64,000 nt of DNA from a virus (IMGVR_UViG_3300001580_000006:159465-223464), one strand, 5' to 3'; positions 2,187 through 60,210 are shown, counted from the first letter of the stretch. Program-made: numbers and translations. Notes: generated by a model not told the origin, from the sequence alone.

Positions 2187-2589
2187 TAACTACTCGCAAT
2201 CTTATACTATTAATGCTACTGTTGCTACTTATTCTTGCTGCATGCCTGCCTCTGTTGTAATATATAAACGGTATTTTAGACTTATACAGGGCTGTGCCTT
2301 GCATCACTTGGTACCCTGGCTTTTTCTTACTTATTGTTCCTTGAATAACTGCTAAAGCGCACGGCGCTAGACTTATATTGGCTAGACGCATATATGCGGT
2401 GGTCATTCCTTGAATACTTGCTTCTGGCATCCAGGCACATCCACGGGTTGTAATAGGTACGCTAGTGCTTCTAATTATTACCCCATCGGTATTCTTTCCT
2501 AACAAGTATATTACAGTTTCAGGCGAGTTTTTAGCAGAGGTAGACTTCAGTCTCTCATGCAACTTCTTGGTAATAATTAGCTTATTCAT
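2179..2589 (-). CDS. GCxxMP paralogue 3
   Basis: KLH...YLLGKN...RGCAWMP...TTAYMRL...PCALAVIQ. Confidence 0.8.
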   Translation of the reverse strand: MNKLIITKKLHERLKSTSAKNSPETVIYLLGKNTDGVIIRSTSVPITTRGCAWMPEASIQGMTTAYMRLANISLAPCALAVIQGTISKKKPGYQVMQGTALYKSKIPFIYYNRGRHAARISSNSSINSIRLRVVNG

Positions 2590-2984
2590 ACTGTTTCAAC
2601 AACGAATGATTCTGTAATACTACCATTGTACTGCCTGGCTATATGCTCTCCAGTACGATAGAACAAGAACGGTATCTTTAATCTAAACAAGTCTAAACCA
2701 TGGAAAGAATAGTTTCCTACTTCTTTAGCACCGCGATATTGAATAACTGCTAAGGCGCAGGGTTTTCTACCTTTCTTTACAAGGGTGATGTAGGCGTCTG
2801 TTATGGTTCTAACTGTTACGCTTGGCATCCATCCACATCCTATATTTCCATTACGTAAAGCCACAGAGTCAACAATCGTTCCTGCCCTGTTTTTGCCCAA
2901 GAGGAAAAGCTTTCTGCCATTCGGATGATCGGCAGAATACTTTTTAAGCTTGTTGTGCAAATTCTTCTTTATTTTTAGCTGCAT
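2586..2984 (-). CDS. GCxxMP paralogue 4
   Basis: NLH...FLLGKN...IGCGWMP...TDAYITLVKKG..PCALAVIQ. Confidence 0.8.
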   Translation of the reverse strand: MQLKIKKNLHNKLKKYSADHPNGRKLFLLGKNRAGTIVDSVALRNGNIGCGWMPSVTVRTITDAYITLVKKGRKPCALAVIQYRGAKEVGNYSFHGLDLFRLKIPFLFYRTGEHIARQYNGSITESFVVETV

Positions 2985-3384
2985 TGTCTTTCAAATATAA
3001 TCTTGTTGGTGTGTGAACAAAGCCGACGGTTTTCATAGCCTTTGCTGCACCAGCTTCGTAGTACAGTACTGGGAGCCTTAGCTTTACAAATCCTTCTCCA
3101 ATTTCTGGTCTCCACCCCGGCTTTCTCCCGCCTTCGTTATTTTGTACAACTGCTAGCGCTCTTGGCCTAAAGCCTAAGTTTGTAACTTTTAGATAGGTTT
3201 TAGTTAACAGCGTACTGGATAAGTGTGGCATAGACCAGCAACCATCATCAGTATCCATTAAGTCGCAACGTATAGATACGCTGCCGTGGTTTGAAGATAA
3301 TAAATAAGCTTTAGCGGCTCGCTCATTAGCCAAAGACTCTTTCTTCAGCAGTTTGTGAAGCTCTCTAGATAGTTTAATGCTCAT
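2944..3384 (-). CDS. GCxxMP paralogue 5
   Basis: ELH...YLLSSN...DGCWSMP...TKTYLKV...PRALAVVQ. Confidence 0.8.
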   Translation of the reverse strand: MSIKLSRELHKLLKKESLANERAAKAYLLSSNHGSVSIRCDLMDTDDGCWSMPHLSSTLLTKTYLKVTNLGFRPRALAVVQNNEGGRKPGWRPEIGEGFVKLRLPVLYYEAGAAKAMKTVGFVHTPTRLYLKDNAAKNKEEFAQQA

Positions 3385-3788
3385 TTGATTTTCGTTATTT
3401 TTACTGCTGCTGCTCGTGGCTTTCCATTTGTAAAGACTCTGCCAACGTGCCTACCAGCACGATAATATAGGATGGGAAGCCCCATCCTACCGATATAGCT
3501 CCCTTGTGTTCCAGACCAGCCGGCTTTGATTGTGTTGCGCTGCGCTTGCACTACGGCTAAACCGCTTGGAGTCATATTCTTTTTAGCCAGTGCTATATAT
3601 ATTTGCGTTAAATCGCTAGACTTTACGCCAGGCATCCAACTGCAGCCGTTCCCAGTACTCGGCAGGCTGTGAGCAGCTGTCAATATTCCTTTATCATTAT
3701 CGGTAAGAACGAATAGCATTGCCCTATCTATGGTTCTCCTAGACATTTCTTTGAGACCATTATGTAGAGCTTTATCTATTTTTATCAT
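3381..3788 (-). CDS. GCxxMP paralogue 6
   Basis: ALH...FVLTDN...NGCSWMP...SDLTQIYIALAKK..PSGLAVVQ. Confidence 0.8.
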   Translation of the reverse strand: MIKIDKALHNGLKEMSRRTIDRAMLFVLTDNDKGILTAAHSLPSTGNGCSWMPGVKSSDLTQIYIALAKKNMTPSGLAVVQAQRNTIKAGWSGTQGSYIGRMGLPILYYRAGRHVGRVFTNGKPRAAAVKITKIK

Positions 3789-4459
3789 GCCGTTAACATT
3801 AGCGACCTTTGGTCTAAGAAAGTCATGTTGAAGATAACCTCGGTCGGGGTTGGCTGATTCATAGCAACGCCTTTGTAAACTCTGCTTATCAAGCTGGACA
3901 ACATAAGGACGTTATATATGATTGCTTTGTTAGTGCATCGCTGAGGCGGCACTTTGTCGTCAGAATAAAGCCGTGACTCGTAGAACTTCGCCTTATCGTC
4001 CGGAACTTTGCCGCCAGATTTGGCAAGGGTGTAGACCATACCCAGCTCAGCGCCCATTCTAGCCTCAATATATAACTGAGCAGCCGGCTGCTTTTTGAAC
4101 TGCTCCCAGACCATCTTCCTTGAAGACATTGAATCTGTAGCTACAATAACCACCGGTTTGAGCGGCTGATCTTTATAGAAGCGAATCTGCGGAAGTATTT
4201 TGGTGTCAGTAAACTCGCCCATAATATCAGCCAGAGCGTTCACCTTAAACTTCTTAAGGTCTTGGTGCCGAAAGAATTGGTTGGGCAAATTAACATCGGA
4301 AACGCCGTCCTCGTCGAAGATCTCTATTACCTTCGCCCCCATCTTTCCAATGGCTAAAGCAGTAAAACTGCCAACCGACCCGGAGCCGATAATGGTTATG
4401 GAGGAGTCGTTGCGACCAACCTTGAAAATGTCGGCTTGTCTAGTTCTGTCTAGGCTCAT
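3785..4459 (-). CDS. ThiF/E1-family Ubl-activating adenylyltransferase
   Basis: N-terminal RQ, IIGSGSVGS nucleotide-binding loop, D.DGVSDVNLPNQ, KFKV, VATDSMSSR, candidate catalytic Cys in QRCTNKA; no Zn-binding CxxC pairs. Confidence 0.9.
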   Translation of the reverse strand: MSLDRTRQADIFKVGRNDSSITIIGSGSVGSFTALAIGKMGAKVIEIFDEDGVSDVNLPNQFFRHQDLKKFKVNALADIMGEFTDTKILPQIRFYKDQPLKPVVIVATDSMSSRKMVWEQFKKQPAAQLYIEARMGAELGMVYTLAKSGGKVPDDKAKFYESRLYSDDKVPPQRCTNKAIIYNVLMLSSLISRVYKGVAMNQPTPTEVIFNMTFLDQRSLMLTA

Positions 4460-11302: not shown

Positions 11303-12052
11303 CTACTCTTTTGCAAGTGTTCTATTTATAATGTCAAACAGGACGTCGTAGGATGCAGTTATGTTAGTCTGCTCCTCTATCCCGTTTAGATGCCCAGGCG
11401 ATCTAACAAGAAGAGTACCATTCTTCTGGCGAGGGGTGAGGTCTGTAGCCCAATTTCTACCCAGTTTATGAAGCATTTCGTGCATGTCTGAACTATTTTT
11501 CCCGAGCAGCTCTTTATGCGAGAAGATTGACTGACAGTACATTTGCAAGCTGTTACGAAGCCAATCCCTGTTCCTCCAGACGAAGTAATTAGCTGCATCA
11601 TCCAAAGGAATGTTGAAGGCTCGGGCATCAAAGGTCGGAAGCCCAAATCTGTAATGTTGATCTTCTGATAGATCACAGTTGTGTTCTGCTGCATTTTGTA
11701 ATAACCTATTATAAAAGTTTATGGTCATCATTGAGGCAGCAGAAGACACTATTTTGTTAACCTCGTAGTTGAACCAGCCCTGGGTTTGAATGGCGTCAAA
11801 GTCAGTCAGCATAAAGGAGGCCTCGTCTGACTGTATGTAGCCTAACTTAAACCCCTGCATAGATTTGGCGGTATCCATTGCGCCCTCGACCATAGAAGCC
11901 ATTAAGACACCATCGAAGGGTCTTTGGAACCCCCTAGTAAAGGAATGGAAGTGTTGCCCGTCCACCCTTATTATCAGCGGTGTTCTATGTACGAAAGAGT
12001 GCGCAAACGTGCTTTCGTACTTCTTCATCCTATCGCCTAATGAGTCTACCAT
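11303..12052 (-). CDS. tRNA(His) guanylyltransferase Thg1-like
   Basis: SLGDRMKKYE, IIRVDGQHFHSFT, YIQSDEASF, FDARAF, NYFVWR..D..RNS; probable start MVDSL at 12052. Confidence 0.92.
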   Translation of the reverse strand: MVDSLGDRMKKYESTFAHSFVHRTPLIIRVDGQHFHSFTRGFQRPFDGVLMASMVEGAMDTAKSMQGFKLGYIQSDEASFMLTDFDAIQTQGWFNYEVNKIVSSAASMMTINFYNRLLQNAAEHNCDLSEDQHYRFGLPTFDARAFNIPLDDAANYFVWRNRDWLRNSLQMYCQSIFSHKELLGKNSSDMHEMLHKLGRNWATDLTPRQKNGTLLVRSPGHLNGIEEQTNITASYDVLFDIINRTLAKE

Positions 12053-12418
12053 ATTTATGCTCCGTTTTACCTTCTCGCGTTCTTCGGCGTATGCCTTAGC
12101 GAATTCCTTATTCTTTAGTTCCTTTTTTAGACGTCGCCTGAATGTTCTTACTGGTATTAACTGGGCCACGAACTTTCTCCTTCCATTCCTTTTTGGGAAT
12201 GTATTTGGCACCTTTAGTCACCTCAGTCGCGGCTAGCGCATCGCTCAGCCGAGTAATTGATCCATCCGTGCGTTTTATGCACTTCATTTATTACTCCTTA
12301 TGAAGCCAGCTTGTTTTTGGTTTCCTGTTGATTTTTCTGGAGCGCCTGGCGGTCTTGTTTGCCTTACGGCGTTTTAGCTTAGCATTATGTATGCATTTCG
12401 CTGTTTTCATTGTGCTCC

Positions 12419-21771: not shown

Positions 21772-22422
21772 TTATTTCTTATTGGCTTCCTCTTCGAGAC
21801 GTTTGGCTTCCGCCAGGACTGGCTCTCTCATTGCAGCCAAAAGAACCTTACCGAACGGACCTTCGCACAGGCTGGGCCCAAAATGTTTGGCCACCAACTT
21901 GGCATCGGCACTGTCTTTGTAGGTGTCGAGGACCATTGTTGGAATGCTTACTGATTCGTTTGCGCCTGGCATGATTTCTCCTTTAAAGTTGTTTGTGTAT
22001 GGTATTACTAAATTACGTCGTTCTATTACGGCTATGAGTTCTTTGCTTAGGCCAAAGCCCAGCTTCAGCAGATGCTTTAGGTAATCAACATTCTTATCGC
22101 GCAATAACGACAGCAACGTTTTATTGGCGTATTTTCCGTCGAGCATGTAGTAGTTAGGACCTAAGTGAATCATGTCCTTACTACCATCGCCTTCGTGTAC
22201 ACCAATAGTGATTGGTGTTAAATTCTTTTTAGCTACTAAGCGATAGCCATCAAGATTTTCAAGGTCAGTTATTCTAGCTGCAGTATGTCCAGTTTCAGCC
22301 CAAGCATGTAGAACCACTGCTTTGTCAGTCTCGTAGAGTTCGTCTTCGTCTGCGTTCCACACACTATAACGATGATTGAACATCATGCCTGGAGGCCATG
22401 GGTATGAGAATACTAGGGACAT
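21772..22422 (-). CDS. Hypothetical protein
   Basis: 216-aa ORF in the gene string. Confidence 0.65.
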   Translation of the reverse strand: MSLVFSYPWPPGMMFNHRYSVWNADEDELYETDKAVVLHAWAETGHTAARITDLENLDGYRLVAKKNLTPITIGVHEGDGSKDMIHLGPNYYMLDGKYANKTLLSLLRDKNVDYLKHLLKLGFGLSKELIAVIERRNLVIPYTNNFKGEIMPGANESVSIPTMVLDTYKDSADAKLVAKHFGPSLCEGPFGKVLLAAMREPVLAEAKRLEEEANKK

Positions 22423-23795
22423 ATCTTCTCCAGTGATTCAGGTTTACCGTTGCGCCAATCTTTTACATTAGTATGCAAAAGGTTGAGCATCCAAACTCGG
22501 TCGGCTAGTGGGTTTTCCAGTTGGTAGAGCTCAAATTGTTCTAGAACCTGCTTGAAGGTTGGTCCAGGTGTCAATCCTTCAGCTATCAAATCGTCGCCAG
22601 TTATTAACCTAACTATCGTTGGTTTGGATTCTATATGAGCAGTTTTCTTAAATTCTTCTATGAAGTCTAGGTTGTCTAGATTCTTACTTGATGCATCAAC
22701 GTCAGCATAGCACAGATCATAGAGGTCCTCATAGAACGGATGGGCGAGAAGCTGCACTATCTTGCCTGGCCGCATCTTCTTTATGTCCTTGAAGCGCATG
22801 TGATTTTCAACCAACCACACAATCTTTTCAGTCTCGTCTAAAGACATTTTTAACCTGCGGCAGATAAACTCCGTCATCCTGGCGCTCATCTCTGCGTGGC
22901 TATGGCTGTGAACTCTTCCACCAATGATCTCGTGCGCATGGAATTTGCCAATATCGTGCAGTAATACAGCCCAGAGAGTAGGCAGATCTGGAGTCAACCC
23001 GATTTCATGCCTACGTGTAATGTAGAAATCGAGTGCCAGCATTGTGTGAGTATATGCGTCTCCTTCTGGGTGGTGCTCCTTAGGTTGCGGAAGCTCCCAC
23101 AGTCTGTCCATTTCCGGTAGGAAGAATGTCCATAGGCCAAGTTCGTGCATATCGTTCATATAGAGACTGGGGTTGCCTGTCAGCAACATTTTGTCCATCT
23201 CCATCTTTATGCGCTCCGGACTTATGCTTTGTAGACGGAAGCTGTTGCGCTGTATAGCTTTGTATGATTCAGTCTCTATACCGAATCGCAGCTTTGCTGC
23301 TATTCGTACTGCACGCAGCATGCGGAGGCAGTCTTCGTCAATGCGTTCATGTGGAACACCAACGAATCTTACCAGGCGGTTTGCAATATCATTTACTCCA
23401 CCTGTGCAATCTTTTAATCCACCGTTTACTGGATCTTGGTATAGAGCATTTATTGTGAAGTCGCGACGGATAGCATCTTCCTCCCAAGTTTCTGCTACTG
23501 AAGTACTTGCTGGTCTTCGCCCGTCTCCACCTTCGTTATGATCGATTCGGAACCTGGCTACCTCCACCTCGTGCTCATTGTCAGACACCAAATATACGCC
23601 AAATGACTTGCCGACTAATTTGGCACCAAACAGTTTGTCTAAAGCTTCTGGTGGAGCAGAGGTGGCTATATCGTAATCGTTTGGATCTTTTGTACTGAGT
23701 ACTCTGTCTCTGACGCATCCGCCAACGAAGTAGGCCTCATACCCGATAGCCTGTATTTTGGCTACGACTGAAGTGGCAAATTCACGTAGTTCCAT
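22413..23795 (-). CDS. cca: CCA-adding tRNA nucleotidyltransferase with HD domain
   Basis: VGGCVRD...DYDIAT, RRDFTINAL, EDCLRMLRA.R, ERI..E; HHPEGD...HT, LLHDIGK. Confidence 0.93.
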   Translation of the reverse strand: MELREFATSVVAKIQAIGYEAYFVGGCVRDRVLSTKDPNDYDIATSAPPEALDKLFGAKLVGKSFGVYLVSDNEHEVEVARFRIDHNEGGDGRRPASTSVAETWEEDAIRRDFTINALYQDPVNGGLKDCTGGVNDIANRLVRFVGVPHERIDEDCLRMLRAVRIAAKLRFGIETESYKAIQRNSFRLQSISPERIKMEMDKMLLTGNPSLYMNDMHELGLWTFFLPEMDRLWELPQPKEHHPEGDAYTHTMLALDFYITRRHEIGLTPDLPTLWAVLLHDIGKFHAHEIIGGRVHSHSHAEMSARMTEFICRRLKMSLDETEKIVWLVENHMRFKDIKKMRPGKIVQLLAHPFYEDLYDLCYADVDASSKNLDNLDFIEEFKKTAHIESKPTIVRLITGDDLIAEGLTPGPTFKQVLEQFELYQLENPLADRVWMLNLLHTNVKDWRNGKPESLEKICP

Positions 23796-28579: not shown

Positions 28580-28954
28580 TGGTGGAGGCGGTGGGAATCG
28601 AACCCACGTCCAACACTGTTTCAAAACCAACATCTACTACAATAGACTGTCGTGTATACGTACTTTCAGAGCAGACAGACAGACCCCATTAAGTACGGAG
28701 CAAGTACATTCAGCTACGGCAACCCTACTCAAACCTCCGTAGCTCGCCCTACCTAAATGATGGTTCTTTCAACTCTGATAGGGTAGAGTATCAGAACCAG
28801 GCTACTGGTTATTAAGCAGCAGCGCGGGCAGCCCACACCTGAGGGGCTGGGAATGCAATGTGTTTGGCATTTGCATGGTTTGGTGGTTTAACGAGCCTCG
28901 CCTTCTCGTGTAGCAGTCAGGATCTCCTCGATGCTGTCGAAACCTGTCGCCCCC
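28580..28954 (-). ncRNA. ssrA: tmRNA; tag (A)AKHIAFPAPQVWAARAAA
   Basis: 5' GGGGGCGACAGGTTTCGAC; 3' GTGGGTTCGATTCCCACCGCCTCCACCA with G3:U70; tag frame 28868..28812 ends AAA-TAA. Confidence 0.93.
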
Positions 28955-40333: not shown

Positions 40334-40422
40334 TGGTGCCAGGATGGGACTCGAACCCATATTCCCAGAGCGCGCCTCCAGAGCTACTACTCCAAGCGTC
40401 TTACCGTTTAGACGACCTTGGC
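40334..40422 (-). tRNA. tRNA-like gene with aberrant/expanded anticodon arm (identity undetermined)
   Basis: GCCAAGG..., D-arm GTCT-AAACGGTA-AGAC, T-arm ATGGG-TTCGAGT-CCCAT, CCTGGCACCA; no canonical 7-nt anticodon loop. Confidence 0.6.
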
Positions 40423-40423
40423 A

Positions 40424-40645
40424 CTATTCAAATATGTATTCGGTATAGTTTCTAATTACGATTACCTTAATTTGATGTTCTTCGGTTCTTCTGGCAGCAA
40501 TATAACAGTTACCTGATCTCCAGCCTGCATACGGAGCTGGTTTCTTTTCGAGCTGTCTTACCAATTTTTTAGCTTGGTGCATTATTTCAACGTCACTGAT
40601 TGGTATGCCAGTGTCTAGAAAGACGGCTGTATACTTAAGTTTCAT
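40424..40645 (-). CDS. Hypothetical protein
   Basis: ORF with a GAGG RBS. Confidence 0.55.
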   Translation of the reverse strand: MKLKYTAVFLDTGIPISDVEIMHQAKKLVRQLEKKPAPYAGWRSGNCYIAARRTEEHQIKVIVIRNYTEYIFE

Positions 40646-58987: not shown

Positions 58988-59064
58988 GGGACCGTAGCGC
59001 AACTGGCTAGAGCACCAGACTGTCTATCCGGAGGTTGCGGGTTCAAATCCCGTCGGTCCCGCCA
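58988..59064 (+). tRNA. tRNA-Asp(GTC)
   Basis: Cloverleaf, CT GTC TA loop, encoded CCA. Confidence 0.93.
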
Positions 59065-59140
59065 GCCGGAGTAGCTCAGTTGGTAGAGCGGCAGCCTGAA
59101 GAGCTGCGCGTCAGCGGTTCAAGTCCGTTCTCCGGCACCA
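59065..59140 (+). tRNA. tRNA-Phe(GAA)
   Basis: Cloverleaf, GCAGC-CT GAA GA-GCTGC; abuts tRNA-Asp with no spacer. Confidence 0.95.
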
Positions 59141-59278: not shown

Positions 59279-59641
59279 ATGGAACAGAAAACTTTACTCG
59301 ATCTCCAAGCGTTCCTAAAAGAGAGCGCAAACACGTTACACGATTTGCATAGACGCAGGAAGGATTGCAGGCTAAAGCCTGGCGAGAGCAAGGCAAGCAA
59401 CTTCGAAATCTGGAAAACAAGTTACGAGCACAGACACCACTTTATCGCTTACTGCGAAATGCGCGGCCGGACCAGAGACCAGATCGAAAAGCCAAGAGAA
59501 AACAACCTTCCCTACGAAAGTAAAATCGCTAAAATAAAGGAGCAATATGGAAAAGCTCTACGTGTTGACGAGACAGGATCTCCCGATAGCATACTCGGCG
59601 GTGCAAGCGGGGCACGCAGTAGCTCAGTGGCTGCTGAATAA
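59279..59641 (+). CDS. Phage hypothetical protein
   Basis: RHHFIAYCEMRGRT..QIEKP. Confidence 0.7.
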   Translation: MEQKTLLDLQAFLKESANTLHDLHRRRKDCRLKPGESKASNFEIWKTSYEHRHHFIAYCEMRGRTRDQIEKPRENNLPYESKIAKIKEQYGKALRVDETGSPDSILGGASGARSSSVAAE

Positions 59642-59843
59642 CAAAGATCAAACATGGAATAACCATACACTGGTATACCTTTAGGTTGCAGACGAAAAGT
59701 CTCTGCTAGAGTGGTCAGAAAAACTAAATGCCAGGTTTATACCATGGACCGGCTTTCGTGAACCAGACATAAATAACCAACTAACTGCGATAGCCTGTCA
59801 GGCGTCAAAAAATCTATTCAAGAATTTAGCTCTTTTAAAATAA
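59547..59843 (+). CDS. Peptidyl-tRNA hydrolase 2 (PTH2)-like protein with in-frame TAG at codon 46 (59682-59684)
   Basis: MEKLYVLTRQDL...AVQAGHAVAQW...TLVYL*VADEKSL...FREPDINNQLTAIA...LFKNLALL; AAGGAG RBS; family motifs on both sides of the TAG. Confidence 0.85.
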
Positions 59844-59845
59844 TT

Positions 59846-59919
59846 GTCTCTGTGGCAGATCGATCATGCAGCAGTCTCTAAAACTGCGCAGCCGGGTTCG
59901 ATTCCCGGCAGAGACGCCA
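59846..59919 (+). tRNA. Amber suppressor tRNA (anticodon CTA)
   Basis: Acceptor GTCTCTG/CAGAGAC-G-CCA; anticodon arm GCAGT-CT CTA AA-ACTGC; T-arm CCGGG-TTCGATT-CCCGG. Confidence 0.92.
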
Positions 59920-60046: not shown

Positions 60047-60124
60047 GGGGGTGTAGCTCAGTTTTGGTAGAGTGCCTGCCCTGCAAGCAGGATGTCACCG
60101 GTTCGATTCCGGTCACTTCCACCA
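60047..60124 (+). tRNA. tRNA-Ala(TGC)
   Basis: G3:U70, CCTGC-CC TGC AA-GCAGG. Confidence 0.93.
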
Positions 60125-60134
60125 GAAAAACAAT

Positions 60135-60210
60135 TCCGGGTTAGCTCAGTTGGTAGAGCGTCTGCCTGTTAAGTAGAATGTCCTAGGTTCAAGTCCTAGA
60201 CCCGGAGCCA
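60135..60210 (+). tRNA. tRNA-Asn(GTT)
   Basis: TCTGC-CT GTT AA-GTAGA, encoded CCA. Confidence 0.95.

Follow-up and report, generated by a model that had tools for sequence, protein, structure and literature searches.

A cassette of two overlapping genes and a tRNA is part of a same-strand tRNA cluster in the analysed stretch of 64,000 nucleotides (hereafter, the window), which forms the final 64 kb of a virus record (a single contig of 223,464 bp, about 94% complete according to CheckV) and which encodes 27 tRNAs and a tmRNA. The cluster lies on the plus strand and runs in the order Asp, Phe, cassette, Ala, Asn and Ser, with tRNA-Asp and tRNA-Phe occupying 58988-59140 upstream and tRNA-Ala and tRNA-Asn 60047-60210 downstream (ARAGORN and Rfam). 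Within the cassette, the first plus-strand element is an ORF of 120 amino acids (59279-59641) that belongs to no known family and that we call UpX; its last 95 nt overlap, in a different frame, the start of a PTH2-like gene of 98 codons (59547-59843, plus strand), which was recognised by its translation, its homologues and its fold. A Shine-Dalgarno sequence, AAGGAG, can be read 4 nt upstream of the ATG of this gene (59537-59542, plus strand). Its codon 46 is an in-frame TAG (59682-59684), situated between the residues LVYL and VADE and followed by a G, and its reading frame ends with TAA at 59841-59843. After a TT spacer follows the third element, a plus-strand tRNA of 74 nt with the anticodon CUA and an encoded CCA end (59846-59919; ARAGORN, Rfam RF00005), hereafter tRNA(CUA). 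The initial annotation had reported the PTH2-like frame, the TAG at codon 46 and a tRNA with anticodon CTA 2 nt after the TAA, and all of its coordinates hold. Scanning the surroundings of the cassette for promoters and terminators gave matches at chance level, with no plus-strand terminator between the gene and the tRNA.

The most immediate objection to such an arrangement, that the TAG is a sequencing error, can be answered from independent metagenome assemblies. All six readable assemblies, retrieved from ENA, Logan and JGI and representing at least five samples, carry the TAG at codon 46; they are nearly identical to one another, and two of them differ from the window by SNPs near the TAG. 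Because six independent assemblies share the codon, two of them as SNP variants, the TAG is neither a sequencing error nor an assembly artefact, but fixed in this phage population. The UpX protein occurs in identical form on 14 contigs.

Integrity and predicted fold of the PTH2-like protein

When translated through the TAG, the PTH2-like protein aligns with homologues of about 96 residues over its full length, at 55-66% identity and without a gap across the TAG, its closest relative being about 66% identical. Every residue that is invariant in the family is retained, both before and after the TAG, in agreement with the family motifs that had been described there at the outset. A family HMM built without the window protein scored it at 145 bits, which places it at rank 12 of 57, and scored the halves before and after the TAG at 74 and 58 bits. 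Since the overall score is high and both halves are strong, the gene is, as far as its sequence tells, free of signs of decay.

These observations bear on the possibility that we are dealing with a recent pseudogene, in which a nonsense mutation inactivated the gene and became fixed in the lineage before further decay set in. Such a history would fit a TAG position that is common to no relative, and also the near-identity of the six assemblies, which amount to one young population. We nevertheless rate it as very improbable: neither side of the TAG shows decay, an amber-reading tRNA lies 2 nt away from the gene, and the family as a whole, described below, has at least five independent internal TAG positions as well as leader TAGs, which would not be expected from random inactivation.

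With 20 bits, the window protein falls short of the cut-off of 23 for the Pfam PTH2 family (PF01981), which is exceeded by relatives of the same family (38 bits at locus L010, 40 bits at L028, 32 bits at L037). The family profile matches the Pth2 structure 2zv3 over its full length with E = 0.001. An AF2 model of the read-through protein, built on 57 sequences, reached a pLDDT of 95.5 and a pTM of 0.87, and its top 14 Foldseek matches in the PDB are all Pth2 enzymes or Pth2-like proteins, with TM-scores of 0.70-0.81; they include 2zv3, 3erj, 1xty, 1wn2 and 1q7s (human Bit1), and the best of them, at 0.73-0.81, are without exception Pth2 enzymes. In the model, the TAG marks the end of strand beta-2 within a single compact Pth2-fold domain, and neither of the two fragments could therefore be expected to work alone.

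The active site appears to be altered. The catalytic residues of Pth2 are the conserved Lys of the GK..AQ..HA motif and the Asp of the RDAG motif, corresponding to K18 and D86 in S. solfataricus. In the profile alignment to 2zv3, the Q..GHA part is retained, with Q20, G22 and H23 invariant in the family, and the likewise invariant E72 is found opposite the Asp of Pth2; the Lys is opposite Tyr16, a residue that is not invariant in the family. As Tyr16 takes the position of the Lys, the substrate or chemistry of the window protein may differ from that of Pth2. We file the protein as a predicted Pth2 fold with an altered active site, and its hydrolase activity as putative.

The amber-reading tRNA and the genetic code of the phage

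tRNA(CUA) has an ordinary cloverleaf, with a 5-bp anticodon stem and a TTCGA T-loop, and attains 50 bits against Rfam RF00005 in a sensitive pass (gathering score 29). In the fast-filter pass of Rfam, run in gathering mode, the tRNA at 59846-59919 was missed; suppressor tRNAs with odd D-loops may be under-called by pipelines that rely on fast filters. The discriminator base is G73, the first pair is G1-C72, and the D-loop is without the usual GG. In this phage, G73 would be compatible with Gln, Trp, Asp or Asn, while G1-C72 is unlike the phage's own Gln and Trp tRNAs, and tRNA(CUA) shares no more than 64% identity with any of the phage's other tRNAs. The label 'Pyl' that ARAGORN attaches to it refers to the anticodon alone. 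Searches of the genome, at its 94% completeness, found no PylS (TIGR02367), no RF-1 domain, no Gln/Glu-tRNA synthetase and no bacterial Pth; given the lack of a phage Gln/Glu-tRNA synthetase, a host enzyme would have to charge tRNA(CUA). The window also holds a tRNA-maintenance toolkit, comprising a Thg1-like tRNA-His guanylyltransferase (11306-12211) and a CCA-adding enzyme (22416-23795), the genes of which both end in TAG, and the tmRNA (28580-28954), whose tag peptide is AKHIAFPAPQVWAARAAA.

The phage uses the standard genetic code and is not TAG-recoded. TAG terminates 45 of the 276 ORFs of the genome (16%), and 28 of 98 in the window, among them full-length genes such as those for Thg1, the CCA-adding enzyme and an ABC ATPase, and the coding density is 0.923 with table 11 as compared to 0.925 with TAG as a sense codon. 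The initial annotation was thus correct in regarding TAG as a normal stop elsewhere and in dismissing a genome-wide code 15, and its proposal to scan the remaining genome for in-frame TAGs, late genes included, led to no other convincing gene. Specifically, a codon-usage scan of the genome, with limited sensitivity, yielded no second convincing gene in need of read-through, and none of the 30 patterns returned by a genome scan for ATG..TAG leaders was convincing. Seven same-frame ORF pairs in the genome are split by a TAG. In six of these, a start codon follows the TAG at a distance of 0-11 codons, and they were rejected as read-through genes, being ordinary gene boundaries. The seventh, with its TAG at window position 40424 and the first start 21 codons downstream, was also set aside, as its downstream frame overlaps a doubtful tRNA-like call. 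This call, an 89-nt ARAGORN prediction on the minus strand (40335-40423) whose anticodon has four bases (agta) and whose acceptor stem is weak, comes immediately after the TAG stop and is probably no normal tRNA. Stop usage also varies along the genome: at 180-210 kb, TAG terminates almost half of the ORFs.

A single gene with a sense TAG, next to a suppressor tRNA, could also represent an intermediate state, in which this is the first or the last gene affected by an early or relic stage of a genome-wide TAG reassignment towards code 15. The distribution of stop codons seemed to point in this direction, as the late and structural genes on the plus-strand arm, which include the major head protein and the tail sheath, end in 60 TAA, 4 TAG and 17 TGA codons, and the genes of the minus-strand arm in 78 TAA, 32 TAG and 57 TGA codons, so that the late arm has few TAG terminators (4/81 vs 32/167, p = 0.002). 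However, the late arm is also poor in TGA (p = 0.004), and a comparison of TAG with TGA shows no significant difference (p = 0.20). We therefore rejected a specific avoidance of TAG by late genes and attribute the pattern to their general preference for TAA. As TAG still ends 16% of the ORFs, and as the single-gene pattern recurs in many unrelated standard-code phages, which indicates a stable state rather than a transition, there is little to recommend this explanation, and we give it a very small chance of being correct.

In-frame stops and neighbouring tRNAs in relatives

A survey of relatives covered 123 loci from IMG/VR, JGI metagenomes and GenBank phages, corresponding to 96 non-identical genes. 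An in-frame TAG is present in 50 of these 96 homologues; in 43 it is found at codon 3-5 behind the ATG, following leaders such as MK, MKDT or MTH, in six it is internal, and one gene has both. In the subfamily of the window gene, the internal TAGs occupy five alignment columns (34, 37, 49, 53 and 72), all of them variable, so that they must have had at least five independent origins. Column 49, which contains the window TAG, is unique to this gene in the sample. It had been suggested to align the homologues in order to see which residue the TAG replaces; the alignment has S, Q, E, N, G, Y, K or H at this position and thus reveals a variable column. As for the idea that relatives keep the combination of TAG and tRNA, the pairing does recur throughout the family, but none of the sampled relatives has its TAG at codon 46. 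The same holds for the condition under which read-through was to be abandoned, namely a unique nonsense mutation: indeed no sampled relative shares the TAG at this codon, but as in-frame TAGs recur family-wide, uniqueness of a single position is too narrow a test.

Leaders of the form ATG-x(1-3)-TAG open 48 of 93 genes, as opposed to 13 of 578 flanking ORFs, a 46-fold enrichment with a Fisher p-value of 3e-35, although such p-values overstate independence, because the surveyed loci were found by their similarity to the window gene and are phylogenetically related. The sequence context of the in-frame TAGs is distinctive, too. They are followed by A in 40 cases, G in 10, T in one and C in none (50 purines in 51), compared to 18 A, 15 G, 23 T and 18 C (33 purines in 74) after the TAG terminators, with which 74 of the 578 flanking ORFs end. 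An A or G following UAG favours amber suppression.

Across the surveyed loci, 82 of 185 tRNAs have the anticodon CTA, and all 82 are located on the same strand as the PTH2-like gene, often within 150 nt of it, either 2-85 nt downstream, as in many loci of subfamily A, or about 65 nt upstream. Most of the genes with an in-frame TAG have such a tRNA beside them. The tRNAs with this anticodon differ widely in sequence between loci, which argues that they do not stem from one recently spread cassette. At a single locus, L122, the PTH2-like gene (2471-2908) has a TGA instead of a TAG in its leader (MKTKH-TGA-VTST...), and the tRNA (3694-3765) has the anticodon UCA; to judge from the two sequences, this is the one compensatory case in which stop codon and anticodon have apparently been switched together.

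The other 46 of the 96 homologues have no TAG, yet most of them adjoin a CUA tRNA, and gating can therefore not be a requirement for the pairing. This is what one would expect under neutral tolerance, where the suppressor is kept for some other reason, TAGs drift in harmlessly, and the window TAG is an accident; a TAG position found in no other sampled gene, at a site where many residues are tolerated, would be consistent with this as well. However, TAGs that are merely tolerated should spread over all genes, while we find one 98-codon gene among about 276 ORFs; the leader TAGs of the relatives are strongly enriched over the flanking ORFs; and the purine bias at position +4, together with the match of TGA and UCA at L122, indicates selection on decoding. 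On balance, we regard neutral tolerance as unlikely, if somewhat less so than the two scenarios of pseudogenisation and genome-wide reassignment.

For genes of the leader type, it is conceivable from their sequences that a mini-ORF is translated first and that ribosomes reinitiate at ATT, the codon directly after the TAG in 34 of 51 cases. In the three loci with a Shine-Dalgarno sequence, however, this is correctly spaced before the leader ATG, with none before the codon that follows the TAG, and this fit, along with the stop being specifically TAG, argues against reinitiation. In the case of the window gene, where the TAG interrupts the domain in its middle, reinitiation cannot yield a functional protein.

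In a narrow, single-pattern scan of cellular genomes, we obtained one match, the phage-like 427-kb contig L137 (JAOZSQ010000001.1, 426,929 bp). It is labelled as a Thermoplasmatota MAG and carries tRNA arrays and an intact PTH2-like gene with a tRNA(CTA) 42 nt downstream; it looks like a huge phage that was binned as an archaeon.

Cultured phages and partner genes

The same layout is found in cultured phages that use the standard code, namely in XacN1 (with an MK-TAG leader), Xoo-sp13, Stenotrophomonas phage RAS14, Tenacibaculum phage pT24 and Serratia phage BF. In several of these, it has affected the annotation. In Serratia phage BF (L042, region 2971-3875), the PTH2-like gene, with its MTH-TAG leader, falls into a gap without annotation. 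In RAS14, the annotated start has been placed too far downstream, as conserved N-terminal residues are encoded between it and the TAG. In XacN1, the gene in question is ORF364, which combines HD-like and PTH2-like domains and whose start, as annotated, is downstream of the MK-TAG. A peptidyl-tRNA hydrolase is annotated in mycobacteriophage ScoobyDoobyDoo as well, and 180 nt beyond this gene comes a tRNA(cta).

The HD-like domain is a recurrent partner. Fusions with the PTH2-like domain, in which either of the two may come first, occur in XacN1, Xoo-sp13, RAS14, pT24 and L028, and the loci that combine HD-like and PTH2-like sequences comprise L042 (Serratia phage BF), L033, L034, L036, L037 and L028. 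In Serratia phage BF, the adjoining HD-like gene itself has an in-frame TAG at codon 47, by which it is split into BF_0405 and BF_0406. A homologue of the HD-like protein was not found in the genome studied here.

The second partner is UpX, a protein without a match in Pfam or PHROG, whose family is characterised by the core motif YRHxHIAYCE[ML]RG[RK]TR[DE]QIE. UpX homologues are encoded directly upstream of the PTH2-like gene at no fewer than ten other loci, with a start overlap of the same frame offset (L009 at 2539-3309; L071, L043, L044, L052, L058, L069, L074-L076 and L078). In L009 and L079, UpX is joined in frame, via a TAG, to a PTH2-like domain that lacks its own start codon. At two further loci (L004, 2652-3038; L001, 2574-3038), the stretch 5' of the partner gene starts with MK-TAG-S, and it is 100% identical between the two, while the bodies of the partner genes are only about 75% identical; the stretch may represent an RNA element, or else a TAG-containing leader of the partner gene. 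The notion that the leader of the upstream gene in L004 hides a tRNA was dropped, as no Rfam family matches it.

Discussion

We think it probable, on comparative grounds, that the PTH2-like gene of the window is functional, and that the amber-suppressor tRNA beside it gates the production of its Pth2-fold protein. Ribosomes would start at the ATG at 59547 and reach codon 46, where they would either terminate, releasing a useless 45-residue fragment, or accept an amino acid from the phage's tRNA(CUA), which very probably is part of the same transcript. Read-through would give rise to the complete Pth2-fold protein of 97 residues, and the amount of enzyme would track the activity of the suppressor tRNA, with the TAG being kept by selection in a working gene. 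Such a mechanism presupposes that tRNA(CUA) is expressed, charged by a host synthetase and able to decode UAG, that the protein acts as a hydrolase of peptidyl- or acyl-tRNA, and that its coupling to the suppressor is the benefit on which selection acts. From the initial annotation, the proposal that synthesis of the enzyme depends on decoding of the TAG by the co-encoded suppressor has gained strong comparative support. The purposes suggested along with it were that the enzyme might clean up drop-off or read-through products, or that the pair might mark an early or relic stage of recoding; for the latter, the one genome-level hint, a shortage of TAG in late genes, failed its control.

What such gating might be good for can be addressed with low confidence only. 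Our preferred, tentative answer is that the enzyme handles tRNA species arising from suppression, or the suppressor tRNA itself; if its substrate arises from suppression, it would be economical to produce the enzyme in proportion to it. Gating remains confronted, however, with a real problem, the cost of suppression. With 16% of the ORFs ending in TAG and no enrichment of backup stops after TAG-ended ORFs (p = 0.24), an efficient suppressor should be costly to the phage, and the absence of any visible adaptation to a strong suppressor argues for suppression that is weak, timed or dependent on context.

An alternative that retains the link between tRNA and gene, but that we consider rather unlikely, is that the cassette is a self-limiting decoding device, in which the Pth2-like enzyme acts on the acylated or peptidyl form of the suppressor tRNA, and the UAG in its own gene serves as the sensor that sets its level. 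In one variant, the enzyme would limit suppression and thereby exert negative feedback, similar to RF2 with its in-frame UGA; in another, it would free peptides from tRNA(CUA), such that tRNA and hydrolase together substitute for RF1 at UAG. Both partners would then belong to this tRNA-centred module as well, UpX with its TAG-bridged fusion in L009 and the HD-like protein with the TAG that interrupts its gene in Serratia phage BF.

Returning to gating by the suppressor tRNA as the probable explanation, the pairing is common to dozens of distant phages, which suggests that the enzyme is probably made only when the tRNA overrides the stop. Suppressor tRNAs of standard-code phages have so far been without a known client, and a matched stop in a neighbouring Pth2-like gene provides a concrete candidate. 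If the prediction from sequence is correct, the cassette would be a naturally occurring case in which a dedicated suppressor tRNA switches one gene, and tRNA-gene pairs of this kind may be of interest to builders of orthogonal suppression systems. For annotation, the consequences are already apparent in the missed gene of Serratia phage BF and the shortened start in RAS14. New in the present instance are the conserved upstream partner gene and a mid-domain TAG that reinitiation cannot bypass; as reinitiation cannot mimic read-through at a mid-domain stop, the window gene offers the cleanest template for a reporter.

Several known systems invite comparison. The pyrrolysine system likewise has a dedicated tRNA(CUA) clustered with genes, with pylT beside pylS and pylBCD, and in-frame UAG codons in client genes, which encode methyltransferases; the phage genome differs in having no PylS, and its tRNA fits the general tRNA model. 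A resemblance of another kind exists to prfB, the gene of RF2, which contains an in-frame UGA and is autoregulated by a +1 frameshift, thus sensing its own product. In both cases, a gene for termination or quality control is interrupted by a stop, and its synthesis would report on the decoding of that stop, but while prfB relies on a frameshift, the stop in the phage gene would be read by a separate tRNA.

Among phages, the closest parallels are the code-15 phages (Lak, crAss-like and other gut phages), in which TAG is read as Gln and suppressor tRNAs are phage-encoded (bioRxiv 10.1101/2021.08.26.457843; PMC9523058). They share with the present phage a tRNA(CUA) of their own, in-frame TAG codons and a proposed tRNA-dependence of translation. 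Their recoding concerns a set of late and lysis genes, however, rather than one small gene in a genome where TAG is still a terminator, and in the window the gated gene, placed beside the tRNA, would itself be a factor for translation or tRNA maintenance; the preprint on stop-codon recoding (bioRxiv 10.1101/2021.08.26.457843) does not mention peptidyl-tRNA hydrolase. XacN1, like our phage, has a CUA-anticodon tRNA while using TAG as a stop, and its authors, who read through the annotated TAG stops, reported two CUA suppressor tRNAs for which no target could be identified (PMC5852040); the candidate target seen here would have escaped this approach, with its TAG at codon 3 and the annotated start of ORF364 further downstream. 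Iyer et al. (2021) presumed the PTH2 of jumbo phages to be an RNA-repair or ribosome-rescue factor (PMC7824862), but, unlike the present analysis, their survey is silent on suppressor tRNAs and in-frame stops in PTH2, and our full-text literature searches returned no paper in which a Pth2 gene of a phage is connected with a suppressor tRNA or an in-frame stop. Set against these systems, the cassette most likely represents phage suppressor-tRNA recoding that is confined to one neighbouring gene.
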